Source: a virus. From it: a stretch of 64,000 nucleotides of DNA. Of this stretch, positions 10,361-63,157 are shown piece after piece (the first letter of the stretch is position 1; every line of letters begins with the position of its first letter). The notes below the pieces were generated by a model. That model did not search any database. It saw nothing but the letters and a program-made list of their open reading frames with translations, and had not been told where the DNA came from. The position numbers and the translations under genes are program-made. The DNA lies in the IMG/VR virus record IMGVR_UViG_3300009194_000008, positions 1 through 64,000 of that record; one strand, given 5' to 3'.

Positions 10361-10570
10361 ATGTCCAACGAAAACACCAACGATCAGCAGAAGTCCAACT
10401 CCACCGAGCAGACCACTGGCTTCTGGAAAAAGCACGGCAAGAAAATCACCCTCGCCGCCACCGGCGTCGGGATCGCCGCTGCCGGCATAGCAGCCGGTAT
10501 GGCACTGAAAACCGCAGTGGGACCGGTGGCTGAATTCGCTGAAGCCGCCGCCGACAGCGCTACCGAATAA
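10361..10570 (+). CDS. small membrane protein
   Basis: GGAG RBS; FWKKHGKK followed by an Ala/Gly-rich hydrophobic helix. Confidence 0.7.
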   Translation: MSNENTNDQQKSNSTEQTTGFWKKHGKKITLAATGVGIAAAGIAAGMALKTAVGPVAEFAEAAADSATE

Positions 10571-10648
10571 ACGGTCATGAAGGGACGGTCAACCACCGTC
10601 CCTTTCTTGTAGTAAAAAAAAACGAAAGAACTAATAAAGGTGAAACCC

Positions 10649-10795
10649 ATGTTCCGCAAAAAGTCCGAAAAGACCGAGAACGAAAAATCCTGGGAAGACG
10701 ACACTTGCCGCGATCTGAAAAGAATGACCGTGGCGTTGACCGTTATCGCGGTGGGTGCTTTCGCGGCCTCCTTCGTGATCTCTTCCAAGCAGTAA
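10649..10795 (+). CDS. 48-aa tail-anchored membrane protein (not in ORF track)
   Basis: AAGGTG RBS; MFRKKSEKTENEKSWEDDTCRDLKRMTVALTVIAVGAFAASFVISSKQ. Confidence 0.65.
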   Translation: MFRKKSEKTENEKSWEDDTCRDLKRMTVALTVIAVGAFAASFVISSKQ

Positions 10796-10839
10796 ACCAC
10801 ATCCATATAAACTGAAAGAATTCAAAAAGGAATATCCTC

Positions 10840-11220
10840 ATGAAAACCGTCAAACCGACCGCCAAGTACGACTTCCACAACGCCGCTGTTTCCGAACTGC
10901 TGAAGTTCCGCACCCCCGGAGAATACCGCCTGACGATCGGCGAGATCGAACATCGCTTCGTGGTGGATGAAGAAAGGCAAGTGATCATCTGCGTCGATAA
11001 CGACAAACGTCCCCACGCCGATGTGGTGATCGCCGTCCTCGAGATCTTCGGGCTGGCCGTTGTCCCGGTGAACATCAAGTCGCTGCGTACCGTCGAGTAT
11101 CGTCGCCGGAAGGACACCAGCCGCCTCACCCGGACCGTTGCAGGCGTGGCCCTGGGTGTGGGTATCATCGCTGGTGGTGTCGCCGTCGGAATGCATGTCC
11201 GCGGCACCGCGACCGAGTGA
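10840..11220 (+). CDS. hypothetical protein with C-terminal transmembrane helix
   Basis: AAGGA RBS; C-terminal VAGVALGVGIIAGGVAVG. Confidence 0.7.
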   Translation: MKTVKPTAKYDFHNAAVSELLKFRTPGEYRLTIGEIEHRFVVDEERQVIICVDNDKRPHADVVIAVLEIFGLAVVPVNIKSLRTVEYRRRKDTSRLTRTVAGVALGVGIIAGGVAVGMHVRGTATE

Positions 11221-11223
11221 GAG

Positions 11224-11250
11224 TAAGGGGCTTCGGCCCCTTATTTTTTT
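11224..11250 (+). terminator. intrinsic terminator
   Basis: TAAGGGGC-TTCG-GCCCCTTA followed by a T7 run. Confidence 0.8.
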
Positions 11251-11267
11251 GTTACAATACGCATAGC

Positions 11268-11284
11268 CTGTATTGTGTAGTTGA
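11268..11284 (+). promoter_or_regulatory. degenerate early promoter C-TGTATTGT-N5-TGA
   Basis: Same spacing as the other four copies; two mismatches to the consensus. Confidence 0.4.
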
Positions 11285-11307
11285 CCGACAAAAGAGGATG
11301 CCCCCTA

Positions 11308-11921
11308 TGTCTAATGTGGTAAACTTCGCGGAACGGAAAGCCCAGCGAGATACCCAACGCGCGATCGATGAGAATATCGAGAACGTAAAGAACGTGGTGA
11401 TTCCTGAAATCCAGGCCGCGATGGAAGAACAAACAGGGGTGGCGGAACAGACCAGTCGTTGTGCGATCGAGGTTCTCCACGGTTTCTTGAGTATCTCACC
11501 CCACATGCTTCCGCTGTTGGTCTTGGAGATCAATCACCACCTGGTCCATTTTTCAATACTTTCCAGAACGGGTGCGGTTATCGGTCAGCCGGAAGAACGT
11601 GCCTTTCTCACAGTTGCCCTGGAGGAATACGACGATACATCTCCCAAGACCTTTTCCTTGGCCCGTCCCGATGAACTCTGCAACCAGGTGCATTTCGAAC
11701 ACGGCTGGCACCTCGGTAAACCCATGATCCAACCGATCGGCTACCTGTGGAGTTTCCTGATGGTAGACAACTGGGTGTTTACGCACCATGAGGTCGATCC
11801 GGTTGCCATGGCGATCACCCAACAGTGGTGTCGTGAAGGGTATCGACTCACCACCACGATGAACCATGACCGCCTGGAGACCACAATCCGGGAATGGGAG
11901 TACCCACTCAATGATCATTGA
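11308..11921 (+). CDS. hypothetical protein
   Basis: GAGGA RBS before MSNVVNFAERK; track start 11217 overlaps the terminator. Confidence 0.65.
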
Positions 11922-13896: not shown

Positions 13897-14457
13897 ATGA
13901 CCGTTAAAGCCGACGACATTAACATCACCCTGATCGCCGCCATGAACTACCGACGAGTACTGGGGGATGGTGAGAAACTCCTCTGGAAAAACCGTGAGGA
14001 CCTCAACCACTTCAAGGAGATGACTGAGGGCCATGTGCTGGTGATGGGGCGTCGGACCTATGACTCACTGCCCTTCGAGGGGGGTTTCCCCAACCGCTGG
14101 AATATCGTGATCAGCCGCACACCGTTGTTTGCTGACACGACAACACTGCGTAACGCCGGTGGGGTAATCAATGCACTGGCATTGGCACGTGACATGGCGG
14201 CTGATCTGTCTAACCGGTTTGACAAGACCCATAAGGTGTTCTGTGTCGGAGGTGGTGAGGTTTATCGTGCGGCACTGGAACATGCCGACCGCATCCTCTT
14301 AACTACCATCCCCAATGATCTCGAAGGGAACGTAACCTTCCCGGTGTTTGAGCAAGACTCTTCTTGGGTACTGGAAAAACAGGAGGTCGGAGATACCCGT
14401 CAAGACGGTAGTGCCAACATCTACACTGTCTGGGAGCGCAATCAAAACACCGCCTAG
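13897..14457 (+). CDS. folA: dihydrofolate reductase
   Basis: LIAAM..RVLG...LLW..REDLNHFKEMT, VMGRRTYDSLP, FPNRWNIVISR, VGGGEVY and GNVTFP motifs. Confidence 0.93.
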   Translation: MTVKADDINITLIAAMNYRRVLGDGEKLLWKNREDLNHFKEMTEGHVLVMGRRTYDSLPFEGGFPNRWNIVISRTPLFADTTTLRNAGGVINALALARDMAADLSNRFDKTHKVFCVGGGEVYRAALEHADRILLTTIPNDLEGNVTFPVFEQDSSWVLEKQEVGDTRQDGSANIYTVWERNQNTA

Positions 14458-14505
14458 GTCCTTTACGTAAGGATCTTTGCTTATACCGTCATTGGAGATA
14501 ACCCC

Positions 14506-15147
14506 ATGTTTAGCGTCTGTAATTTTAAACACCAAGAATTGCAAATCGATACCGACGGCGATACCCCCCGTATCGCCAACATGTCTGCTGCCGTAGCCCA
14601 CTCCATGCTGTCTGACAGTTTGGAAGAGGCTCCAGTAGATCATGAGATCATATGTGGAATAGCCACTCCGCATTTGGGGTCGGCACTGCTGGTTGGTGAC
14701 GATGACCCTGACTGGATCTGCATGCGGGTGAAGGAAGAGTACCGTGAGGCGAATAGCACCGAGTGGTATGTGTTCACCTCCACCCGTGTTCGCAATATTC
14801 AGTATTTCCATAGCCAGGAGTTCCCCTCCATCGGTGGACGTCAAGGGGTCATTGTGGTCCATGACTACCCGTTAGTCCTCCCAACCGCCAAATACCACGA
14901 GTGGTTGAGAAGCCTGAAACCGAATAATCCGGAACTGTCCACCAAGACAATCCCGGAAGGGGAACATGACTACCTGGTTCTCTGGACACTGGAAGACAAT
15001 TACCTGATGTACGTGTCAGAGGCTCCGCTGGAAGATAACTGGGTGGAAAGCATGGTGGTGACGTCCAAGTTGAGCGATTCCACCGAACTCAACCTACCGA
15101 TCGAGGCGTTTATCTCTATCGACGAGGACGAGGTATTCGACGACTGA
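14506..15147 (+). CDS. hypothetical protein
   Basis: GGAG RBS; 213 aa; followed by a hairpin and T run. Confidence 0.7.
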   Translation: MFSVCNFKHQELQIDTDGDTPRIANMSAAVAHSMLSDSLEEAPVDHEIICGIATPHLGSALLVGDDDPDWICMRVKEEYREANSTEWYVFTSTRVRNIQYFHSQEFPSIGGRQGVIVVHDYPLVLPTAKYHEWLRSLKPNNPELSTKTIPEGEHDYLVLWTLEDNYLMYVSEAPLEDNWVESMVVTSKLSDSTELNLPIEAFISIDEDEVFDD

Positions 15148-15156
15148 CCAACCGGT

Positions 15157-15182
15157 ACCCTCTCCTACGGGAGAGGGTTTTT
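15157..15182 (+). terminator. intrinsic terminator
   Basis: ACCCTCTCC-TACG-GGAGAGGGT followed by Ts. Confidence 0.75.
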
Positions 15183-15256
15183 CTCCGCGTCTTTTTTTTT
15201 TGATTATGGTATGGCTAGTAACCGTACTAGAAAAGGACGTATAACAGGAGAATTCC

Positions 15257-45904: not shown

Positions 45905-46756
45905 TTAGAAGTGGATGATAAGGTTCAGCGCATCGTTGCTGGACAGCTGGGTGATGATCACGGTGTTCTCATCCAAAATCTGCATGTTGCGCACACCGGT
46001 GGGGTACAGGGCGGTGATCGGAGACACTTCGGTCACATAGCCGAACCAGTTAACCGGATACTTGCCCTGGTTGTGGGTGATCTTCAGGGAGGTACCATCG
46101 TACTCCTTGGCCACAGTCACGCCATCGGGAACCACGAAGTCATCAGCCGCCCAGCTGATAACGTCGATACGGATCGGCACGGTGCCAGCAGGACCCTGCG
46201 GGCCTTGAGCACCCTGATCGCCTTTATCACCCTTGAGGGAGGCCAGCCAGTCGGTAACACTACCGGTATAGCCTTCGTTGACCGCGACTTCATAGGCCGA
46301 CATGCCATCGGGACCGACCGGGCCCTGGGGACCTTCTTCGCCTTGAATCCCCTGGATGCCTTGTTCACCCTGGACACCCTGCTCACCTTGGTCGCCTTTT
46401 TCGCCTTGGACACCCTGCTCACCCTGCTCGCCCTTCAGGGAATCCAGCCATTCTTGCAGAGTACCGGTAAAGCCTTCACCGACAGCGGCCACATAAGCGG
46501 ACTCACCGGCCGGACCTTCCGGACCCACGAGGGAATCCAGCCATTCCTGGCGGGTACCATTGAAGCCTTCGATTTGGGCCAGCTCGTAGGCGGACTTACC
46601 TTCAGCGCCTTGCTGACCGATCAGCAGGTCGGTACTGATACGACCATTGATGAACGGGCCAGAGTCGCCATCACGGTGGATAACTTCGACGAACTTCTGA
46701 CCGGACAGATCAGGAAGTACCGTCAGTTCCGAGAGCTTTAAACCATTTGCATTCAT
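45905..46756 (-). CDS. collagen-like fibre protein
   Basis: Long Gly-X-Y run (GEQGEQGVQGEKGDQ...) and three SAY..A...GF/Y.G...WL.SL.G repeats; GAGGA RBS before MNANG. Confidence 0.85.
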   Translation of the reverse strand: MNANGLKLSELTVLPDLSGQKFVEVIHRDGDSGPFINGRISTDLLIGQQGAEGKSAYELAQIEGFNGTRQEWLDSLVGPEGPAGESAYVAAVGEGFTGTLQEWLDSLKGEQGEQGVQGEKGDQGEQGVQGEQGIQGIQGEEGPQGPVGPDGMSAYEVAVNEGYTGSVTDWLASLKGDKGDQGAQGPQGPAGTVPIRIDVISWAADDFVVPDGVTVAKEYDGTSLKITHNQGKYPVNWFGYVTEVSPITALYPTGVRNMQILDENTVIITQLSSNDALNLIIHF

Positions 46757-46836
46757 CGTTACTTTCCTCTTTCTAAAAGACAATTGGCATTGTTGCCAGT
46801 CCTACACACCTTAAAAGACCCTAGCCTTTTAAACGA

Positions 46837-53938: not shown

Positions 53939-54514
53939 TCAAATCATGAAACGTAAGTAGTGTAGCCCGACGGCTGTTGCATCAACAGCATGTTCGTCCA
54001 GTGTGTCAAGGCCCACTCCCCACTCTAGATCACGTCGCAACGCCAGAGCGTCACGTACGATGCTTTTCTTATCTTTCATTTTGCGCATTGCTGACAGATC
54101 CACCCCTGCTGCCATCTTGGCCACATTGGGTTCTACCTGATACAGCGGTAGATACGCATCATACGCCATAAGCGCTTGACGAACAACCGCCAAGCATTCA
54201 GTTAGGGCCGCAAAAGTTTGCACAAAGCGACCCTGATAAGGCGATTCGGCAATCACCGCTTGTGGTCGGATGCAATGAAGTAAGTAGAGCAGCTCGTCAT
54301 GGTGTTGTTGCAGTCGTGCTGTTCGTCCACCATGGAGTTCTTCAATTGCACCGTACCCATTGGTGTTGTTGGTCGCCTTTAACGTAAAACCGTCTTCCAC
54401 TCGATACTTCGGTGACTCAAGGTCCCAGCTAAGAATGGACACCCCCAAGGTGGAGGTGCCCGGATCTATGCCCATGACCGTGAAGGGTCGAGTGGAGGTG
54501 GGCATTACCAGCAC
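53939..54514 (-). CDS. ruvC: RuvC-like Holliday junction resolvase
   Basis: MGIDPGT, IAESPY, EP..AK and EHAVDATAVG motifs. Confidence 0.85.
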   Translation of the reverse strand: MLVMPTSTRPFTVMGIDPGTSTLGVSILSWDLESPKYRVEDGFTLKATNNTNGYGAIEELHGGRTARLQQHHDELLYLLHCIRPQAVIAESPYQGRFVQTFAALTECLAVVRQALMAYDAYLPLYQVEPNVAKMAAGVDLSAMRKMKDKKSIVRDALALRRDLEWGVGLDTLDEHAVDATAVGLHYLRFMI

Positions 54515-54516
54515 GG

Positions 54517-55404
54517 TTACAGGAAGGTCGCGTTGTTGACGTCCTGCTCACCCAGCATCGGTTCAACCCCACCCACGTCCAGCGTGAAGGTTGCCCCGTT
54601 GGTGGCGTACCCGATCGCATGATAGGTCGCGACATGCACATTCACCTGACAGGCAATGCACTCTTGGTAGGTGAACGTCCCGGCACCACCCGAACTGCCC
54701 TGGACTTCCTTGTCGACACCGGAACACAGGGCGATCTCGGAGATCACTGGTGAGCGAACGGACCCTGTACGGATTTTGTGGGCATTGAGGATTTCGGCGA
54801 TATCATCCGGACCCAACTCAACGGTCATCACCGCTGAAGCGGACTCAGAACTACTGGAACCGAGGACGATACCAGTGTTTGAGATAGCGGGGCGTTCCGG
54901 GTTGAGGTTATCGGTAGTCGGGGTAAAAGGCGTGGTGGTTGCCACCCCATCAGTCACCTCTACACGCTGTAGCTGCGCTACCACATCGTCCATGGTAATA
55001 CGACGCAGATAGTAGGCCACATAGTTCACCCCATCGTGGGTTTCCAGCACCCGTAAGGCGTAACGGTCACGAACATGCGCCGGGAGATCATTGGTGACTT
55101 CACGTAACACAAAGGGGATCTGTCCATAGAGACCCGCATCAGTAGCGCGATGCGGGACCGGTACGGTTTCATCACTACCATCGTCAGCCTTGACGGTAGC
55201 GTGGCCCAGGTTACCGATCGCGAAGTAGCGCATGGCTGGGGTCTGTGTCGCAGGCGGAGTAACACCGGCCTGAACATCGAAACGTTCATTGAGAGTGGTG
55301 TTCTCAATCAATTCAAACGGGATGCCCAGGTTTTTGATCGTTTGCAAATACGTCCCGTAAACAGTCCGCGTGACGCCAATGATTTCTTGGTCCATAGAGG
55401 CCAT
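54517..55404 (-). CDS. virion structural protein (phiKZ gp139-like)
   Basis: NTTLNERF, YFAIGNLGH, IPFVLRE and ISEIALCSGVD segments of a conserved phiKZ-type family. Confidence 0.7.
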   Translation of the reverse strand: MASMDQEIIGVTRTVYGTYLQTIKNLGIPFELIENTTLNERFDVQAGVTPPATQTPAMRYFAIGNLGHATVKADDGSDETVPVPHRATDAGLYGQIPFVLREVTNDLPAHVRDRYALRVLETHDGVNYVAYYLRRITMDDVVAQLQRVEVTDGVATTTPFTPTTDNLNPERPAISNTGIVLGSSSSESASAVMTVELGPDDIAEILNAHKIRTGSVRSPVISEIALCSGVDKEVQGSSGGAGTFTYQECIACQVNVHVATYHAIGYATNGATFTLDVGGVEPMLGEQDVNNATFL

Positions 55405-55474: not shown

Positions 55475-55960
55475 TCAACGTAACCTAAGGTTGATCCCAT
55501 CAAAATGGAAGCGGTCTTCTACTGTTTCGTTCCACAACAACTCCACAGGATGACTGTACGAGTCTTCGATTGACCGTAGTTCACGAATCAACACCCCCCA
55601 CTGTTTTTGAAAATATCGAACGGAGGAGAACGAATCTCCACGGTCGATGTAGCGAATAAGATAATCATCCAGTAGGGATGGGTGTGGATACACTCGGTAA
55701 TGAAAAATTTCCTGATTGATGAGTTGTTGAATGATGGGCATCTCAGTCGCAGCGAAGATAATCCTTGCGGTTGATAGATGACACTTTAACATTCTAATGT
55801 AGTTTACCGGAAAAGTCGGATCACCGCGGTATCCATTTGTATCGAGGTCTATCACCGTATCATCCGGTATGGATTTCGTGTGATATAGTTGGTTTTGTAT
55901 TGACCGGAACATCCGGGACTTTCCCACGCCCGGAAAACCACAGACGACATGTGGTTGCAT
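55475..55960 (-). CDS. P-loop (nucleotide kinase-like) protein
   Basis: Walker A VVCGFPGVGKS. Confidence 0.75.
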   Translation of the reverse strand: MQPHVVCGFPGVGKSRMFRSIQNQLYHTKSIPDDTVIDLDTNGYRGDPTFPVNYIRMLKCHLSTARIIFAATEMPIIQQLINQEIFHYRVYPHPSLLDDYLIRYIDRGDSFSSVRYFQKQWGVLIRELRSIEDSYSHPVELLWNETVEDRFHFDGINLRLR

Positions 55961-55965
55961 GAGGG

Positions 55966-56517
55966 TTACCCGAATGTGAAGTCAGTGGTTAATGCTACCC
56001 GAAACTCCCCTGGGTGGGGGAGTACATAGTGAGGGATGTAACACGGAAAGATCACCATCATACCCGTTGTCGGGGAAATGTGGTGATTCGCGAAATATCC
56101 ACGTCGAACCGGTGTGGGGTATGATCGACATGCCGCACCACGGGGATCCATCAGGGTGAGGTCCCCTGGCGCCGCCGCAAGATACAACACCGTGGTCAAC
56201 AGTGAATGACCGTGGATATGGGGTTCAATCCCGGCGTTGTTATGTCCATGAACCGCCCAACTGTGATAGGACATTGTTGATTCGTCAATTGGGTAATCCC
56301 AGCAGTCTTTTGTGTACTGTAAGACGGCTGGTACGATTACCTCGCGCCGCAAGCGCCACAAGTAGGGCGTGTGTTCCTCACTAATGATCTCTTGCTCGTC
56401 CGCACCCCACTGGGCCATTTGCGGACTACTAAAGATTTCAGTAATGGCGCGTTCTTCGTCGATGTCCTTTATAACCTGTTGTCCAATCTGTGTGCGCCAC
56501 GGTTCATGGTATTCCAT
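55966..56517 (-). CDS. 2OG-Fe(II) oxygenase (HxH type)
   Basis: SWA, PHIH, VLYL, DPRG, IFPCYIPHYV and RVAL motifs. Confidence 0.82.
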   Translation of the reverse strand: MEYHEPWRTQIGQQVIKDIDEERAITEIFSSPQMAQWGADEQEIISEEHTPYLWRLRREVIVPAVLQYTKDCWDYPIDESTMSYHSWAVHGHNNAGIEPHIHGHSLLTTVLYLAAAPGDLTLMDPRGAACRSYPTPVRRGYFANHHISPTTGMMVIFPCYIPHYVLPHPGEFRVALTTDFTFG

Positions 56518-57617
56518 TACGCCTCCCGGCTAGTGGCAATTAAACCACTCTCATTAACGTAGGGGGTAGGTTCCAGCTGACCTGTCATCCCATTAGCTTC
56601 GATAATGTCTGGTGCTAGACGTTTCATTTTCTGACAATGGTGTTCGACCAGACCCAAGGCCTTATGGTCGTGGGTTGTCTTTTTGCAGGAATTACAAATC
56701 GAAAACATGGGACACCCATAACAGCTATACTTCATCACGCTGATTTCGGGGTCGTTCTGTAGTGGTGTGGTCAACTCTCCGGTCATTTCACTATTAAAGT
56801 CAATCGCGTATTTTTTATCGTCAGCAAATGCTGGACAGCTATAGTAGTCGCCGGATGGTTGTAGCGTACGTATCCCTGCATCACACTGTCGCGACAATGG
56901 GCAAGTAGTGAGTTCCCCTCTCAACTTACGTACCATCTGCTTTGTATTATATTCCCACTCCGTGAGGCCGGCTTTCCATATATCAACGTAGTGTCCATAC
57001 ATGTCAGCAAGTAGGTAAAGGGATCCCTCATTGCCCATTTGTCGGCCTTTGATCTCTACCGATGGCCCCGATGACATTGCGTAGTTGGCTTTACATTCAA
57101 CTTCCATCTCACGGGCCAGACGGACGTGATCCAAAACCCGGTCGGCATTGTCTTCATCGATAACCGAAATGAAGTCTGGCCGGTAACCACAGATATCCAA
57201 CATGCAATCGGAGACTTTCCAGAACTCTTCTTCGGTAAAGGGGGTAAAATCCCCCTTCAGTCGCTTATCGCCGTACTGGAAACTGGTAATTACCGAGAAC
57301 TTTGGGTGTTGAAAAACCGCCCGCCAACGCTCGGGTTTCTTGTAGAACGGCCACAGGTTACTGGTGATACTTACAATAACATCAAGGTTCTCATCATCGA
57401 GGTAGTCCAGCAGTTCTTGGTAATAGTCAGGGGTCATCATCAGCGGATCGCCACCGTTGACAATAATTGTCTCTGTCTCCGGGAACCTAACCAGGAAGGC
57501 TTTGATTTGATCCAATGACAACTCATCCCCTGCATCATCGGCAATCGACGTACTGGAACAGAAGGTGCATTTGAAATTACACCGTTCTGTTGGTTTAATT
57601 ACGAGATCCACACCCAC
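56517..57617 (-). CDS. radical SAM/SPASM-domain maturase 2
   Basis: CNFKCTFC; GGDPL; Cys-rich C-terminus (CP..C, YSCP, CYGC...CNSC...C). Confidence 0.92.
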   Translation of the reverse strand: MGVDLVIKPTERCNFKCTFCSSTSIADDAGDELSLDQIKAFLVRFPETETIIVNGGDPLMMTPDYYQELLDYLDDENLDVIVSITSNLWPFYKKPERWRAVFQHPKFSVITSFQYGDKRLKGDFTPFTEEEFWKVSDCMLDICGYRPDFISVIDEDNADRVLDHVRLAREMEVECKANYAMSSGPSVEIKGRQMGNEGSLYLLADMYGHYVDIWKAGLTEWEYNTKQMVRKLRGELTTCPLSRQCDAGIRTLQPSGDYYSCPAFADDKKYAIDFNSEMTGELTTPLQNDPEISVMKYSCYGCPMFSICNSCKKTTHDHKALGLVEHHCQKMKRLAPDIIEANGMTGQLEPTPYVNESGLIATSREA

Positions 57618-57620
57618 TCC

Positions 57621-58688
57621 TTAGTCGGCCCACCCGACTTTAACTGGATTGCCTGACGCACGGTTGGCCAGTGCCCAGAAAACCAGATTCGTGGTAAACA
57701 TGCGCGATTCCATGGGAGGAACAATGAGCGTCAACCGATCCAACTGCGTATAAGCGTCAATATACCCGTCCACTATTTCGTCGTCGGGGAGTTCGAGAAG
57801 TTCAATCGGCACAGTCATTTCACGCACATTTGTCTCGAGGTACGTGTTGGTGTTGATGGTGTTAAGGAGTTTGCGGAGATCGTGTTGATATCCTTCCTTA
57901 AACGCCACGATTTTCTCAGAAGATGAAAATACATCTTCAAGGTCAACCTCACGCGACACTACCTTGAGTCCTTCGATATCACGCAGTGGGGAATTCATAG
58001 TCAGTGTAGCGGTGGGGAGCTCCCCTAGCATCTTTTTAATATGTGGCGAGAAATACAGATACCCCAACTTACTCCGTTGTGTTTCTATTTGATCATTAAT
58101 TGCCCGATAAAGGCGATGACGTAGTCGTGTGGGTAAGGTAGTATCCTCTTCACCTGCCATATGGCCGAGCAGGCGGTATTCCACCGGGAGGTGTTCGTGG
58201 TGGTTGTTCAAAAACTCAAATACTACATCGGAGCGCGACATTTCTGTCATGCACCGTTTGATAAAGTTAGGTGTTGTCGTTTCACTACCCCAAATGAACG
58301 TTGATTCAGAGCGTTCACGGTTAAGGAACAGTAAGAACGCAAGTTCACACAGCGCGCTATGGGAAAGCTTTGGGAACAGGTGACGAACCCAGAAACAGAA
58401 AAGCTTGACATAGGCCTCGTCGTCACAGAAGATAACCACGGGCCTGTCGCGGTCACATAACAGTTCTAACTCATCAGGAAAAACACTCGTAATAAAGTCA
58501 TCGACGTCCTTGGTATAATAACAGGTCTGTGCGAGTTCTGGAATACCTAACGACTTCGACAGTCGATCATCTTCGGATTCTAGAAAATGATCCTCAATAC
58601 CACTACCAATGATGTATCGTTGGGTGTTACTGTTGAGGTGGTCAATATGGTCAACATAAACGTCGTCAAATAACAGGTACATTCTCAA
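57621..58688 (-). CDS. hypothetical protein of the radical SAM cluster
   Basis: 355-aa ORF coupled to its neighbours. Confidence 0.7.
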   Translation of the reverse strand: MRMYLLFDDVYVDHIDHLNSNTQRYIIGSGIEDHFLESEDDRLSKSLGIPELAQTCYYTKDVDDFITSVFPDELELLCDRDRPVVIFCDDEAYVKLFCFWVRHLFPKLSHSALCELAFLLFLNRERSESTFIWGSETTTPNFIKRCMTEMSRSDVVFEFLNNHHEHLPVEYRLLGHMAGEEDTTLPTRLRHRLYRAINDQIETQRSKLGYLYFSPHIKKMLGELPTATLTMNSPLRDIEGLKVVSREVDLEDVFSSSEKIVAFKEGYQHDLRKLLNTINTNTYLETNVREMTVPIELLELPDDEIVDGYIDAYTQLDRLTLIVPPMESRMFTTNLVFWALANRASGNPVKVGWAD

Positions 58689-59397
58689 CTCCTAATTCAC
58701 TAACCGCTTTATTGAACCGAGCGATAAACTCTTTCTCATCAAACTCGCCCTGCTGTATCCCGATGCCGATCAGGAATACCGGATTTTCAGCATTACACCA
58801 AAAAAGTTCCAGTGTACTTCCCCGGTAAAGGGGTTTATCGTAAAGATCCTGATAGTAACACAACGGAATAATGGGGGTGCCATCCAGGAGTAATGGGAAC
58901 AGATCGTGGCCGATTAGTTTAATATAGTTAATTCCCGTTAGATCCCGATCGGTTACTACCTCGTGTTGTTTGAAAATATAGTCCTCATTGACCCCGGTCC
59001 ATTTCATGTTGTAGAGACTGAGTGACTCGATAATACTCAGCCAACGGTAAATAATGTCACGGTTTTGAGGGTCGATGATAAGATCGTGGTAGTCGATCCC
59101 CGACTCACTGGCAAACCCTTTAATTTGTAGTAATACTTCTAGGACGCCACGTTCCAGCTGAGGTAGGTCATGCACCATAGGAGAGCGCATATACGCCAGC
59201 AACAGAGAAAAATAATCATCGGTTGATGTAAAATCTAACGTTACTTCCATTCCGAGGTTGGTCAAATACGTCAAAAATACTTGCCCTTCAAGTTTCGACT
59301 CCGCTACGTCGATAACCACCTCAGGCGTGGGCTTCTCAGCCACCAGTCTTTTGATAACATCGGTGGGGACTGGAACTACCGTATTAATTGCTTGCAT
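58666..59397 (-). CDS. hypothetical protein of the radical SAM cluster
   Basis: GAGGA RBS; 243 aa. Confidence 0.72.
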   Translation of the reverse strand: MQAINTVVPVPTDVIKRLVAEKPTPEVVIDVAESKLEGQVFLTYLTNLGMEVTLDFTSTDDYFSLLLAYMRSPMVHDLPQLERGVLEVLLQIKGFASESGIDYHDLIIDPQNRDIIYRWLSIIESLSLYNMKWTGVNEDYIFKQHEVVTDRDLTGINYIKLIGHDLFPLLLDGTPIIPLCYYQDLYDKPLYRGSTLELFWCNAENPVFLIGIGIQQGEFDEKEFIARFNKAVSELGVENVPVI

Positions 59398-59422
59398 CTA
59401 GGTTGTCCTCTATACTTAGTTT

Positions 59423-59995
59423 TTACACACCACCACCGTTACCTGGACCGTCGCCATGACAGCTAGAGTGGCAACTATAATGGCAGCTAGAATGACAGAA
59501 TGTTTCGCTGATGGATACCGTTGAATTCCGTACATTGACCACCTTATTCTTTACCGCCGTCATGTACGATCTCAGATCGCCATAATCGACCGGATTTCCA
59601 GCGGCCGTGCCACTGCCTCCAGGATCACTAATACCTGTCCTATAACCACTATGTAGATGACCAATGCGGGTCTCATTAGCAAATACATAATACCTGGAGT
59701 TATTGTTGTACCGCATATACACTGAAACACGGCGGATTGCTGTGTACAGCGCGGCATGTGCGACAATACGACTGCGCATGGTAGACGAGTCAATATTACC
59801 GGAGAAGTCACTGGTACTTGGACTATTGTAAAGTCCATTTTTCGACCCAGTGAAGTACGACTCGTATGTACTCCGGGCATAGCCGTTGTAATCAGGTGGG
59901 TAATTGCCACTTCCCCAACTAATTCCCGAATTCAGAGGATTTCGAATGTAGGCGTTAAACAGGTTAACGACGTGCTGTGATGTAACATCGGTCAT
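59423..59995 (-). CDS. Ser/Tyr/Asn-rich protein with C-terminal CHSS-CHYS-CHSS-CH repeat (putative modification substrate)
   Basis: C-terminus FCHSSCHYSCHSSCHGDGPGNGGGV; located between two radical SAM genes. Confidence 0.75.
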   Translation of the reverse strand: MTDVTSQHVVNLFNAYIRNPLNSGISWGSGNYPPDYNGYARSTYESYFTGSKNGLYNSPSTSDFSGNIDSSTMRSRIVAHAALYTAIRRVSVYMRYNNNSRYYVFANETRIGHLHSGYRTGISDPGGSGTAAGNPVDYGDLRSYMTAVKNKVVNVRNSTVSISETFCHSSCHYSCHSSCHGDGPGNGGGV

Positions 59996-60001
59996 GTTTC
60001 A

Positions 60002-61042
60002 TTATCCTTCAATCATCGTAAGTGGGATGAGGTTGTCGCCGCCTCTCTGGATGTAACGCAAAAGATTTTTCAAACCACCGCACCGGTCACCCTGCCAGGG
60101 AAGTTGATGACAATCACCGCCACATAGATGAAACACATCACACTGTAAACAGTTGGGGTGAAAATTCAACTCGTGGGTGATTTCAGCAAGTCGCCCATCG
60201 CTGGTAAGAAAGGTTTCAACACTGTCGTCAATCGTGGCATGTTTATTACTTGCTGCGGTGTTGGGACATCCAGCGAGTGACCCATCGGCGTTCATTGTTA
60301 CTAGATTCTGTTCGCAGTTACGGCAGTTGGTGTCTGTCTTAACCACCTGTGTATCAAGCTTCTCCTCAATTATATCTAAGGTGCCGATTGAGAAATTCCA
60401 ATGGTACTGTGGATCCTTGTATAATTTATAGACCTCGACAAACCAATTATCTTGAGCTTCGTTATCCGGAAAGATCGCCGGGTTGCGCACGGCGTTACCA
60501 TCCAGCGTCAGGCGTTCCAGTTTGATGTTCTCCGGCGCTACCTGTTGCATCTCATTAAGGAACTCCATTATCTCCATATTCACCAGTTCGGTGTTGACCG
60601 AAACAAAAACACACCGTGGAATCCCTTCGTTCTTCAAGATGGCAACATTCTTTTCCCATAGCGCCTTTTGGTTATGGGTTTCAAAACGAATCCCTACATC
60701 CCAGCTGGTACCGACAAACCCAATGCGGCGTAAGAGCGCCAGTTTCCGATCATCCAACTTCAACACGAGGTTCGTCGTAATTGTAATTGCAACATTTGGT
60801 TGTTTTTCATAATAGGCAACGAATCGTTCCAAATCCTCTATGGGGGCAAGAAGTGGCTCACCTCCATGTAGGATCAGCATCACCTGTTCCCCTTCTGGGT
60901 AGTGGGCGATAAATTGATCAATCCAGGCAATGGTGGCGTCTGCATCCCACTTGACTTTACTCCCGTTGCGTCCGTTAGTAAAGCAGTGGTCACAATGCAG
61001 GTTACAAGTATCGGACGTCTTAACATAAATTGCCTTACTCAT
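60002..61042 (-). CDS. radical SAM/SPASM-domain maturase 1
   Basis: CNLHCDHC; HGGEPL; CRNC, GCP and CLQC...CGGDC...C. Confidence 0.92.
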   Translation of the reverse strand: MSKAIYVKTSDTCNLHCDHCFTNGRNGSKVKWDADATIAWIDQFIAHYPEGEQVMLILHGGEPLLAPIEDLERFVAYYEKQPNVAITITTNLVLKLDDRKLALLRRIGFVGTSWDVGIRFETHNQKALWEKNVAILKNEGIPRCVFVSVNTELVNMEIMEFLNEMQQVAPENIKLERLTLDGNAVRNPAIFPDNEAQDNWFVEVYKLYKDPQYHWNFSIGTLDIIEEKLDTQVVKTDTNCRNCEQNLVTMNADGSLAGCPNTAASNKHATIDDSVETFLTSDGRLAEITHELNFHPNCLQCDVFHLCGGDCHQLPWQGDRCGGLKNLLRYIQRGGDNLIPLTMIEG

Positions 61043-61048
61043 ACATCC

Positions 61049-61750
61049 TCACGTCAGCGGAGGGAGTTTAGTGTCGTCGATCAGATGTTCTCTGAACCAC
61101 TTGATCACTACGTACTTGGTGTGGGTGACTACAGGTGTAGACAGGTGGTGGGCCTTATTGTCGGCTGTCGCAAGGGGGTAGTTAAAAAACAACAACGACC
61201 CTTTTTTTGGGTAAACGCAAATACCCAAGTGATCAAAGCAGGTACCGCCATCACCATGTGTGTCATTTAAATACATGACCATGGTACCGACCCGTTGTCC
61301 TCCATTATCAAGTGCCCGAGAACGGTTTTTTCCTTCGCCAAAGAAATCATGGTGTCCACGGATACCTTCGTCGTAGTCGTACCGAACAAAACTACTACGT
61401 TCCGTTTTAAACCGTGGCCATAATGTAATCGCCTCAAGGCGTTCTTCAAACCTCTTCATAATCGGACATGAACTACGTTTTAGAGCTTTCCCATATGCAG
61501 TGCGACGCTCGTCAATAACCTCATTACCTTCATGGTCTAAAAGAAAACCCATGCGTTTGAGACCGGTGTTGTATTTTTCGATGAGGGTATCGCATTCAAC
61601 ATCGGTTAGAAAATGATCGATAACTCTAACATGCGGGTCATCAATGGAGAGACGTACACAACAGTCATCTGGAAGTAGGTGACGTGCACTGTTTAGGGAG
61701 TGCTCACTGATGGTTGGTGCCACACGGTACGGGGGTATCGGGTATGACAT
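61049..61750 (-). CDS. prolyl-4-hydroxylase-like 2OG-Fe(II) dioxygenase
   Basis: FLTDVECD, HHDFF (HxD), GGQRVGTMVMYLN, GGTCF, H...V...KYV..KW; start approximate (track start 61834). Confidence 0.85.
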   Translation of the reverse strand: MSYPIPPYRVAPTISEHSLNSARHLLPDDCCVRLSIDDPHVRVIDHFLTDVECDTLIEKYNTGLKRMGFLLDHEGNEVIDERRTAYGKALKRSSCPIMKRFEERLEAITLWPRFKTERSSFVRYDYDEGIRGHHDFFGEGKNRSRALDNGGQRVGTMVMYLNDTHGDGGTCFDHLGICVYPKKGSLLFFNYPLATADNKAHHLSTPVVTHTKYVVIKWFREHLIDDTKLPPLT

Positions 61751-61870: not shown

Positions 61871-63157
61871 TTATTGCCACTGTGGCGGCCACACGGTTCG
61901 CCATGAACCACTAACCCGTGCCTGGAGCTGTCCATTGTAAACTCTCAGGCTGGTTTCGTCGCTGGAGTTTTTGATCACGTAACGACTATCGTGTTCATTA
62001 CCCGCAATGTGGTCATTCAGTGCCTGACGAACACGCTGCGGTGTCATGAAACGGTTGCCGGCGGTACCATTCACAGCATCACTGTAAGAGGCAGTCGGGT
62101 AGTTGTCTACATTACCTAACCCCACCTGAGCTTTCGTAACGTTGTGTGGGTTGTTGGTGTTAGTGGTATGTTGCTCCAACTGCCGTCCCGCTTGGAAATC
62201 AATGGCTTGCGCGGTGCGCAGTGGGGTCATATACCGATCGTTACGATCCCCAACTTCAGCCTCGCCCTGGGATGAAAGAGTAAAATCCTCCACCCGACCA
62301 AGACCCACTTGAGTTTTCGTGACGTTATGGGGGTTGTTATAATCATCACGGTGACTACGAAAGTCCCGACCTAGATGAAAATCAACCCCGTGGACCAAAC
62401 CCTCTACGGTTATAAAGCGGTTATTCGCGGTTCCTGTTTCAACTTCCAGTAACGTTGCGGTAGGGTAGTTATTCACTGAACCCAAACCCACCTGGGCTTT
62501 CGTGACGTTATGGGGGTTCGTTGAGTTGGCTTTGTGGTCCTGGAACCGACCATCGAGAGCATCGGTATAGTCCTTCCCAACGTCGAGCAGTTCCCGGGCG
62601 TACGCCCGTACTTCGTCATGAATTGACTGATCACCCACCACAATCGCTTGGACAACGCGTTCTAACTGGATGACCAGATACTCAAATCCATACAACTCCC
62701 ATAGCGCATGTAGATGCCCTCCTGGGGGGTATTCCGATGGCTTACCAATGATCTCGGCCCATTCAACTGGTCGATCATCATCTTTCAGGGTTTGAAGTAC
62801 CTGCTCCAGCGCGGCTGTTGAAATTGCAAAGTCACCACCCACCGCCTGGTAGTCGACGGTGACTTCTGAGGTAACATTGGGGTCAATAACAACCAATGTA
62901 CCACAAACTTCCAGACCGCTGCGGGTAGTAGCATCCTCGTATAGGTAGGTGGCAATGTAATGGACATCGGGTTTTAACCGAAGGCCCGAAGAATCCCTAA
63001 GGACCAAGGACTCGGTATAAAACGCGCCATTGTTAGGAACAAATACACGCATGCCATCACGTGAGTTTTCCACCAGGGTATGGCGTTCCCCAATGACCAG
63101 ATTGTCTGGATTTCGTCCAGTCAGGTCCAACGGATACTTACGAATTAACGGGGTCAT
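61871..63157 (-). CDS. tail fibre protein (phiKZ gp145-like)
   Basis: YPLDLTG..PDNLVIGE N-terminus; three NPHNVTKxQVGLG.V repeats with MTP repeats. Confidence 0.78.
   Translation of the reverse strand: MTPLIRKYPLDLTGRNPDNLVIGERHTLVENSRDGMRVFVPNNGAFYTESLVLRDSSGLRLKPDVHYIATYLYEDATTRSGLEVCGTLVVIDPNVTSEVTVDYQAVGGDFAISTAALEQVLQTLKDDDRPVEWAEIIGKPSEYPPGGHLHALWELYGFEYLVIQLERVVQAIVVGDQSIHDEVRAYARELLDVGKDYTDALDGRFQDHKANSTNPHNVTKAQVGLGSVNNYPTATLLEVETGTANNRFITVEGLVHGVDFHLGRDFRSHRDDYNNPHNVTKTQVGLGRVEDFTLSSQGEAEVGDRNDRYMTPLRTAQAIDFQAGRQLEQHTTNTNNPHNVTKAQVGLGNVDNYPTASYSDAVNGTAGNRFMTPQRVRQALNDHIAGNEHDSRYVIKNSSDETSLRVYNGQLQARVSGSWRTVWPPQWQ

Follow-up and report, generated by a model that had tools for sequence, protein, structure and literature searches.

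Maturation by radical S-adenosylmethionine (rSAM) enzymes with a SPASM domain is known, as far as we are aware, from peptide natural products, a handful of enzymes and a single bacterial defence effector, and not from virus particles. Among the triceptides, cyclophanes joining His C2 to a C-beta atom are established on HAA, HNR and HTK motifs (PMC11499958). In the bacterial His-Xaa-Ser (HXS) system the effector, an HxS-repeat protein that keeps phage DNA from entering, is matured by two rSAM enzymes, and the modification adds 8 Da to an SHRSS unit (PMC13128918). Here we analyzed a gene cassette encoding two rSAM/SPASM enzymes (rSAM1 and rSAM2) together with a protein that ends in Cys-His-x-Ser repeats. 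It is located in the window, a stretch of 64,000 nucleotides (positions 1 to 64,000 of the IMG/VR virus record IMGVR_UViG_3300009194_000008) that covers the opening 64 kb of one contig of 98,858 bp from a phiKZ-like jumbo phage.

The cassette consists of eight minus-strand open reading frames (ORFs) that run from 61834 down to 55475, neighbours being separated by, or overlapping by, no more than about 25 nt (Table 1). We propose that the cassette may serve specifically to mature a single virion protein, the 190-aa product of the third gene, and on balance we consider it somewhat probable that its enzymes crosslink or hydroxylate the tail of this fibre-type protein. The initial annotation of the window, made from the sequence alone, had suggested that the phage matures its own repeat protein; comparative evidence now supports a dedicated conserved cassette and a best candidate substrate, while the chemistry is still something that we infer.

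The 190-aa protein ends in ...FCHSSCHYSCHSSCHGDGPGNGGGV, and this end holds its sole four Cys residues. A profile search of 1.84 billion representatives revealed 603 clusters (50% identity) of the same family, 301 of them at E <= 1e-10; no Pfam or NCBIfam model exists for it. The bodies of the family members are 20-30% identical. In an alignment of 83 sequences, the six Cys and His residues of the tail motif C-H-x-S-C-H-x-S-C-H are invariant and the first Ser is nearly so. Among 207 distinct sequences, 181 end in R-x-R-R and 162 correspond exactly to.CH..CH..CH..R.RR; the minority ends are GS[IL] and the type found in the window, ...SCHGDGPGxGGG(V/R). The x positions are occupied by small residues, the fourth position of the unit is Ser or Asn, and the tail Cys are usually the only Cys of the protein.

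Departures from this pattern were also informative about what is kept. In some tails the third Cys is lost and H-S-S is kept; in others His is replaced by Tyr (…SCYASRSRR) or 'CH' by Y (…CHGSYSARGRR). The aromatic-x-small unit is thus retained despite loss of Cys or replacement of His by Tyr (P0108, P0156, P0111 and others). The core is multiplied ahead of the final RGRR in L032 (10001-10684) and in P0128, which has 14 tail Cys, as in multi-core precursors. At the DNA level, the 12-bp period of the window repeat is matched at 74% with varied synonymous codons, which indicates that selection acts on the protein and that the repeat is not the result of recent slippage.

AlphaFold2, run with the 83-sequence alignment, predicted an alpha/beta body at residues 1-167 (pLDDT 89.5, pTM 0.83) and a disordered tail block (pLDDT 53 and 44). 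A confident body with a disordered tail in the monomer model is as expected for a substrate accessible to enzymes. A fold search with the body gave no match to a solved fold (best VIA Z 3.5), and a PDB sequence search with the family profile gave nothing meaningful. In BFVD only family members and three larger uncharacterised Myoviridae proteins were found. The latter (A0A8S5USJ7, A0A8S5USJ8 and A0A8S5USV2 of Myoviridae sp. ctijX18, 504-660 aa) show the body fold with TM 0.49-0.56 by query, and on these models the body may also occur within larger proteins as one of their modules. Another type of fusion was observed in P0069 (453 aa), where the body is joined to an N-terminal Gly_rich_2 domain (PF21722, 43 bits).

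We next consider the distribution of the cassette. By tblastn, rSAM1 and rSAM2 co-occur in 15 records from about 12 distinct cultured phages, including Pseudomonas phage pPa_SNUABM_DT01 (DT01), Agrobacterium phage Atu_ph07, Sinorhizobium phage Phosso and phages of the Ralstonia/Burkholderia Chiangmaivirus group (RSL2, RSF1, FLC6, FLC8, S13, RsoM3USA and others). In DT01, RSL2 and Atu_ph07 the genes follow the order cupin, rSAM1, small protein, homologue of unk243 (the gene behind the tailed protein in the window), further genes, rSAM2 and 2-oxoglutarate (2OG) oxygenase, and the small proteins end in ICHTSCHTSCHSARGRR, VCHSSCHTSCHGSRGRR and FCHSSCHASCHNSRSRR, respectively. A pattern scan of IMG/VR yielded 66 viral loci. 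In 62 of them rSAM1 lies immediately upstream of the tailed protein on the same strand, often with overlapping genes; recurring in so many independently fetched loci, this arrangement is far beyond chance. In 59 loci unk243 directly follows the tailed protein, with rSAM2 and a 2OG oxygenase a few kb further, and in 39 a homologue of 2OG-FeII_Oxy_5 comes after rSAM2. The neighbourhood survey therefore confirmed, in cultured phages and in IMG/VR loci, the earlier suggestion of related clusters in other jumbo phages.

The cassette always abuts fibre or baseplate genes in phiKZ-like, Atu_ph07-like and T4-like genomes. At the environmental loci a giant DUF4815 protein, fibre-like proteins and a phrog_473 virion protein are found on the upstream side and an LtfC-like fibre-assembly protein on the downstream side. 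Compared with these relatives, the window cassette is a compact, minimal two-rSAM form of a widespread kit. A scan of species genomes detected the kit on contigs of metagenome-assembled genomes (MAGs) only; three contigs of Bdellovibrionota MAGs (L070, L071 and L077) carry rSAM1, the tailed protein, unk243 and rSAM2. Searches of the phage collection with the cassette DNA and the tailed protein (DNA search, tblastn) gave zero matches, and the enzymes alone were found.

Several further observations concern the composition of the kit. An rSAM protein of about 550-650 aa with a B12-binding domain is present in the cassette of 26 environmental loci (e.g., L056, 12329-14032) and is absent from the window; similar genes flank the kit on the Bdellovibrionota-MAG contigs (L077, 18881-20536; L070, 18015-19973). 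In Chiangmaivirus, two dihydrofolate-reductase-like genes are located between the rSAM genes of the cassette (L002, RSL2, 14042-15191; L096, RSF1, 10503-11619). Matches in the actinobacterial loci L074, L076 and L079 (Cellulomonas, Streptomyces and Nocardioides) were rejected as high-GC tandem DNA repeats read out of frame. Such GC-rich repeats yield spurious SCHTSCHTSCH strings and can mislead motif scans.

The first gene of the cassette varies together with the end of the tail. In most relatives its slot is held by a JmjC-like cupin, which matches Cupin_2 and JmjC_2, and in the window by a prolyl 4-hydroxylase-like (P4H-like) oxygenase, the orthologue of which occupies the matching slot of viral contig L080. 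Nothing turned up in two metagenome scans, nor in a scan of viruses that used the P4H-like protein. The cupin adjoins rSAM1 in 47 of the 53 loci with RxRR tails and is absent from all 11 with GS[IL] tails; at both loci with G-P-G (GDGPG) tails, the window and L080, the P4H-like enzyme replaces it. The JmjC_2 family includes ribosomal Arg and His hydroxylases, and X-Pro-Gly is the classical context of prolyl hydroxylases, which the G-P-G of the window tail fits. The window also encodes a 292-aa protein (45905-46783, minus strand) with two collagen-like G-X-Y runs (GEQGEQGVQGEKGDQG... and GPQGPVGPDG) between repeated SAYE...GFTGT...WL units. This collagen-like protein is an alternative candidate substrate of the P4H-like enzyme, although its Pro are in the X, not the Y, position.

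These data bear on a different explanation, namely that the Cys/His ladder is a native metal site and no enzyme substrate, and that the rSAM enzymes and oxygenases modify other neighbours such as the large fibre proteins. In a trimer the Cys-His pairs of the three chains would then form an axial row of ligands for Fe, Zn or Cu, comparable to the metal-binding HxH motifs of T4 gp37 and the iron-loaded spike tips of P2 gpV. Such a site agrees with the recurrence of Cys and His at i, i+4 and i+8, with the position of the tail at the C-terminus of a fibre-type protein and with the location of the cassette among fibre genes, including those for the giant DUF4815 and fibre-like proteins. We nevertheless regard it as unlikely, since it leaves unexplained the adjacency of rSAM1 and the tailed protein, the covariation of the tail end with the first oxygenase and the replacement of His by Tyr; besides, no other protein of the 98.9-kb contig has a comparable conserved motif. 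Taken together, the sequence comparisons support the Cys-His-tailed protein as by far the best candidate substrate. The metal-site and crosslinking readings are compatible, as a crosslinked tail could still bind metal. The remaining probability, beyond enzymatic modification of the tail and a native metal site, is spread over alternative chemistries and roles.

Both rSAM proteins contain CX3CX2C at residues 13-20 (C13/C17/C20) and a GGEP or GGDP motif. Cys 13, 17 and 20 and eight C-terminal Cys of rSAM1 are invariant in 25 orthologues; the CX3CX2C and GGDP motifs and eight C-terminal Cys of rSAM2 are invariant in its family alignment. Both therefore represent full SPASM enzymes. With the SPASM model TIGR04085 (cut-off 27 bits) rSAM1 passes and rSAM2, at 23.4, is just under; the cut-off of Pfam Radical_SAM, 29.5 bits, is exceeded by both. 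rSAM2 is the best conserved gene of the cassette, with 51-71% identity over phiKZ-like, Atu_ph07-like, T4-like and Bdellovibrionota-MAG loci.

Among the best 25 of 66 (rSAM1) and of 51 (rSAM2) NCBIfam matches, the top ones of rSAM1 were the cyclophane enzyme YhhB (59.5 bits), anSME (59.5), FxsB (54.6), the thioether enzyme PapB (52.5) and DynA, and those of rSAM2 were DynA (42) and anSME (30.9); the CXXX-repeat maturase model (TIGR04115 type) was not listed among them. The corresponding cut-offs are 445 for YhhB (NF041707), 349.45 for anSME (TIGR03942), 370 for FxsB (TIGR04269) and 340 for PapB, so that neither triceptide model is reached. rSAM2 scored 23.9 with XyeB (TIGR04496, cut-off 450) and 29.3 with HxsC (cut-off 267.9) at residues 10-87 only; the HXS models are TIGR03977 for HxsB/HxsC and TIGR03979 for HxsA. 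Judged by these scores, the enzymes are outside the HXS families and the other curated maturase families that scored. The expectation that they belong with SPASM maturases held for Radical_SAM with both enzymes and for the general SPASM model with rSAM1, and failed for every curated maturase family among the matches listed; membership in the paired-rSAM HXS system, which the initial annotation had mentioned as a described bacterial family, was not supported. The PDB relatives of the rSAM enzymes are 8VPO, anSME, CteB and the triceptide synthase ChlB.

The repeated appearance of anSME raises the question of an anSME-like oxidation, by which the last unit (C-H-x-S-R) would gain a formylglycine in place of its Cys or Ser, giving a reactive aldehyde, e.g., for covalent coupling to another virion protein. 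The sequence C-H-x-S-R resembles the sulfatase motif C/S-x-P/A-x-R, and anSME, which works on whole proteins, is tied as the best NCBIfam match of rSAM1, ranks second in the PDB for the rSAM1 profile and is the only PDB sequence match of rSAM2; the very high apparent mass of the homologue gp170 (see below) would also suit a coupled protein. However, the tails lack the Pro/Ala that the sulfatase motif has at +2 (the last unit of RxRR tails is C-H-[GSN]-[SNA]-R), GS[IL]-type and window-type tails have no Arg, and the anSME score is far under its cut-off. Three repeat units and two or more conserved rSAM enzymes argue for several sites. We consider formylglycine formation to be quite improbable.

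The fibre nature of the tailed protein is suggested by its relatives. P0011 and P0038 contain a Peptidase_S74 domain (PF13884; 44.8 and 39.0 bits, cut-off 22), which begins right past ...SCHGDSPGTGDGTD-S-DERLK, after ...CHGD(S/G)PG... The S74 intramolecular chaperone trimerises the preceding segment of tail fibres and tailspikes and then cleaves itself off at a conserved Ser. P0011 shares 51% identity with the window protein across its full length, the GD-PG stretch included, and is encoded on L080, which has the gene order of the window (fibre, fibre, P4H-like, rSAM1, tailed protein with S74, unk243, unk355, rSAM2, Walker-A, DUF7208). The GDGPGNGGGV end of the window protein would thus represent the linker before the chaperone cleavage site, and from this homology we infer that the window protein corresponds to a trimeric fibre-type protein that lacks the chaperone.

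A homologue is present in particles. Proteomics of purified virions recovered 8 unique peptides of Atu_ph07 gp170, covering 35% of it (PMC6102473, Table S5). The protein was identified as the tailed-protein homologue because its computed mass, 31.89 kDa, agrees with the value in the table, as is also the case for gp176 and gp177. In the same table gp170 occurs in gel slices 1-9 with its peak in slice 1, most other Atu_ph07 proteins of 28-35 kDa peak in slices 7-8 and a few lower, and the rSAM enzymes, the cupin and the unk243 homologue are not listed among the virion proteins (PMC6102473, Table S5). The tailed protein is predicted to be a small fibre-type, probably trimeric, particle protein. 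The initial annotation had named as outcomes a modified virion tip, a metal-binding element or an anti-defence effector. The virion tip is favoured, since gp170 is found in virions, relatives are fused to S74 and the cassette is located among fibre genes; for the effector no support was obtained.

Two other roles are affected by these findings. The tail might be a sacrificial precursor of a small molecule or cofactor, in the style of PQQ or mycofactocin, with the body as a scaffold and unk243/unk355 excising the product. An invariant core with a variable rest is typical of PqqA and MftA, and SPASM enzymes and oxygenases are found in such pathways. A sacrificial role, however, is hard to reconcile with a homologue recovered from virions and with relatives fused to a fibre chaperone domain, and no protease, transporter or redox partner is recognisable; we hold it to be very improbable.

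Alternatively, a cationic modified HxS-repeat protein might act as an infection-stage effector that counters or mimics the bacterial HXS defence or excludes superinfecting phages. Most tails do end in basic R-G-R-R, and the HXS system, as noted above, matures its own HxS-repeat effector with two rSAM enzymes. Yet homology to HXS is confined to the rSAM core, PADLOC found no defence-family match beyond weak generic domains (viperin-type rSAM, 2OG, PtuA AAA), and the tailed protein has neither a signal peptide nor a peptidoglycan-binding domain. Its late position in the fibre region, the virion homologue and the S74 fusions speak for a structural role, and we give the effector role hardly any credence.

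Enzymatic maturation of the tail has its own points to answer. The choice of the tail as the substrate is a case of guilt by association, and the chemistry cannot be read from homology as both rSAM enzymes are far under all curated family cut-offs. The covariation of tail end and oxygenase is suggestive rather than statistical because it is based on two or three clades and not on independent events. Both an S74 domain and an RxRR end are missing from the window protein, the fibre nature of which is deduced by homology from P0011 and P0038. The high gel position of gp170 could be that of a non-covalent SDS-stable trimer, since annotated Atu_ph07 tail fibres also run high, and many proteins smear in that data set. 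Finally, on the Bdellovibrionota-MAG contigs the kit is flanked by genes for a FabH-like ketosynthase, an AMP-binding/acyl-CoA-ligase-like protein and DUF4097, and the 20 kb fetched around it showed no recognisable phage genes. Predatory bacteria may therefore possess the kit as well, and the idea of a phage-only family was dropped because of these flanks.

The genes of the cassette and its surroundings are listed in Table 1. All eight co-oriented, tightly packed ORFs were found where the initial annotation had placed them, directly behind the tail-fibre genes; the two rSAM/SPASM enzymes and the two 2OG oxygenases were verified by Pfam matches above cut-off and by the invariant SPASM Cys. The gene list was right throughout, with the reservation that the 'P-loop protein' owes its name to the Walker-A motif GFPGVGKS, its only P-loop feature, and to phrog_4182. 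Its membership in the cassette is uncertain; it also follows rSAM2 in L080.

Table 1. Cassette genes, tail segment and flanking genes in the window
Feature	Coordinates	Strand	Matches and remarks
P4H-like 2OG-Fe(II) oxygenase, 261 aa	61049-61834	-	2OG-FeII_Oxy_3 (PF13640) 39.6 bits, cut-off 27
Radical SAM/SPASM enzyme 1 (rSAM1), 346 aa	60002-61042	-	Radical_SAM 36.4 bits; TIGR04085 29.0; phrog_1802 181 bits
Cys-His-tailed protein, 190 aa	59423-59995	-	Candidate substrate; predicted fibre-type virion protein
C-terminal tail, residues 167-190 of the 190-aa protein	59426-59497	-	(C-H-x-S)3-C-H (59456-59497), then GDGPGNGGGV
unk243	58666-59397	-	phrog_20767 112.8 bits
unk355, fast-diverging conserved protein	57621-58688	-	Cluster at matching position in 42 loci
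Radical SAM/SPASM enzyme 2 (rSAM2), 366 aa	56517-57617	-	Radical_SAM 40.3 bits
2OG-FeII_Oxy_5 oxygenase, 183 aa	55966-56517	-	PF13759 42.9 bits; phrog_81 70 bits
Walker-A protein, 161 aa	55475-55960	-	phrog_4182 (function-unknown family) 93 bits; Pfam sub-threshold
Fibre or virion structural protein, immediately upstream of the cassette	61871-63157	-	phrog_2163 425 bits and many tail-fibre PHROGs
DUF7208 protein, just downstream of the cassette	54517-55404		59% identical to PhiPA3 gp158 virion structural protein

The end of the rSAM1 gene and the start of the tailed-protein gene are 6 nt apart, and no promoter or terminator signals above background interrupt the eight-gene block. Orthologues of the upstream fibre protein are also found upstream of the cassette in DT01, RSL2, L032, L069 and L080. 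Beyond the DUF7208 gene, a 191-aa ORF (53939-54514, minus strand) starting ...VMGIDPGTSTLG... has, by eye only, the appearance of a RuvC-type resolvase.

The two proteins between the tailed protein and rSAM2 were also analyzed. unk243 was modelled by AlphaFold2 with pLDDT 90.8; a fold search found no PDB match (best Z 4.3, over 54 residues only), and, like the tailed protein, it had no NCBIfam match. unk355 had no Pfam, PDB or rSAM-profile match. PDB sequence searches with the profiles of both gave nothing meaningful and ESM Atlas contained nothing for either. The possibility that unk355 is a degenerate radical-SAM protein was rejected (hhalign probability 0.6%).

The following scheme can be proposed. 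A folded body would carry a flexible C-terminal (Cys-His-x-Ser)n tail, from which the two SPASM rSAM enzymes, before or during assembly, would abstract hydrogen atoms and install covalent crosslinks. The likeliest of these would be three-residue His-to-C-beta cyclophanes on H-x-S/N/A and/or Cys thioethers. Cyclophanes would suit the tolerated variants, which keep aromatic-x-S/N/A and fit the aromatic-X-X logic of triceptides; a second reaction, e.g., thioether formation, is possible as Cys is invariant and at least two SPASM enzymes are conserved. The Fe/2OG oxygenases would hydroxylate the tail end, at Pro of G-P-G in the window variant and at Arg or His in the RxRR variant, and unk243 and unk355 would act as dedicated helpers. 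The result would be a host-contact fibre whose Cys/His tip is stapled and possibly binds metal. Only tentatively do we go further and suggest that phages, and possibly predatory bacteria, apply RiPP-type radical-SAM chemistry to a structural protein: covalent staples, together with hydroxylations, would make the tip of this fibre a rigid Cys/His apex, perhaps loaded with metal, on which adsorption or penetration of the envelope depends.

If this is true, it would set two precedents, a tail-fibre tip crosslinked by enzymes and a virion protein matured by radical-SAM enzymes, and bring a new enzyme chemistry on the Cys-His-x-Ser motif. Jumbo phages would spend two to nine iron-sulfur enzymes on one small fibre-type protein, and such an investment would point to a structure of importance, and of unusual chemistry, where phage and host meet. 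We found no functional study of these phage genes in the literature, genome papers only listing them, and a broad jumbo-phage survey does not mention radical SAM. The value of the window is that it represents the minimal two-rSAM form and has a tail ending in GDGPG instead of RGRR with a matching swap of the JmjC-like cupin for a P4H-like oxygenase. New here are this GDGPG/P4H variant, relatives with an S74 fusion in a phage of matching gene order, the covariation of tail and oxygenase and the analysis of tail variants.

Among known systems, triceptide synthases (YhhB, HaaB, HtkB, and FxsB with FxSxx-COOH precursors) are likewise rSAM/SPASM enzymes encoded beside a substrate with aromatic-X-X units repeated at or near the C-terminus, here three or four H-x-S/N/A units with Tyr rarely replacing His. 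In contrast to the short leader-core peptides of triceptides, the candidate substrate here is a folded 190-aa predicted virion protein with an invariant Cys ahead of each unit; an RRE domain was not seen, and the kit is phage-encoded and contains oxygenases and a second, more conserved rSAM. The thioether SPASM maturases (PapB/freyrasin with CX3D; QhpD/QhpC; the methanogen enzyme, PMC13692751) share the Cys at fixed spacing. They link Cys to a residue three or four positions away, and QhpC and the archaeal substrates are proteins, not peptides, but the acceptor here would be Ser or His and not Asp or Glu. With anSME (TIGR03942, PDB 4K36-4K39) the cassette enzymes share a minimal rSAM/SPASM form of about 370 aa without RRE and an action on Cys/Ser of a full-length protein that may apply here too; they differ in that the sulfatase motif is not matched, a sulfatase domain is absent and the scores are about 6-fold under the cut-off.

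Structural analogues are provided by metal-loaded tips (T4 gp37 HxH-Fe; the iron apex of P2 gpV and phi92 gp138), which also have a His repeat at the C-terminal tip of a trimeric host-contact protein, and by S74-chaperoned fibres (endosialidase, T5 pb1), as the S74 chaperone directly follows the repeat in relatives of the window protein. Metal-loaded tips need no dedicated radical enzymes, whereas here Cys-His pairs are accompanied by a conserved enzyme kit and a body without PDB match.

The closest functional analogy in the literature appears to be the HXS system, in which HxsA is matured by the rSAM enzymes HxsB and HxsC with HxsD (PMC13128918). In both cases there are two rSAM enzymes, a small helper and a whole protein as the actual or candidate substrate, with His-x-Ser repeats rich in basic residues. 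HxsA differs in being exported, in binding peptidoglycan and in having no Cys. The biology would also be reversed: HXS serves host defence, while the present cassette is located in the late, fibre region of phage genomes, where a homologue of its putative product is part of the particle.

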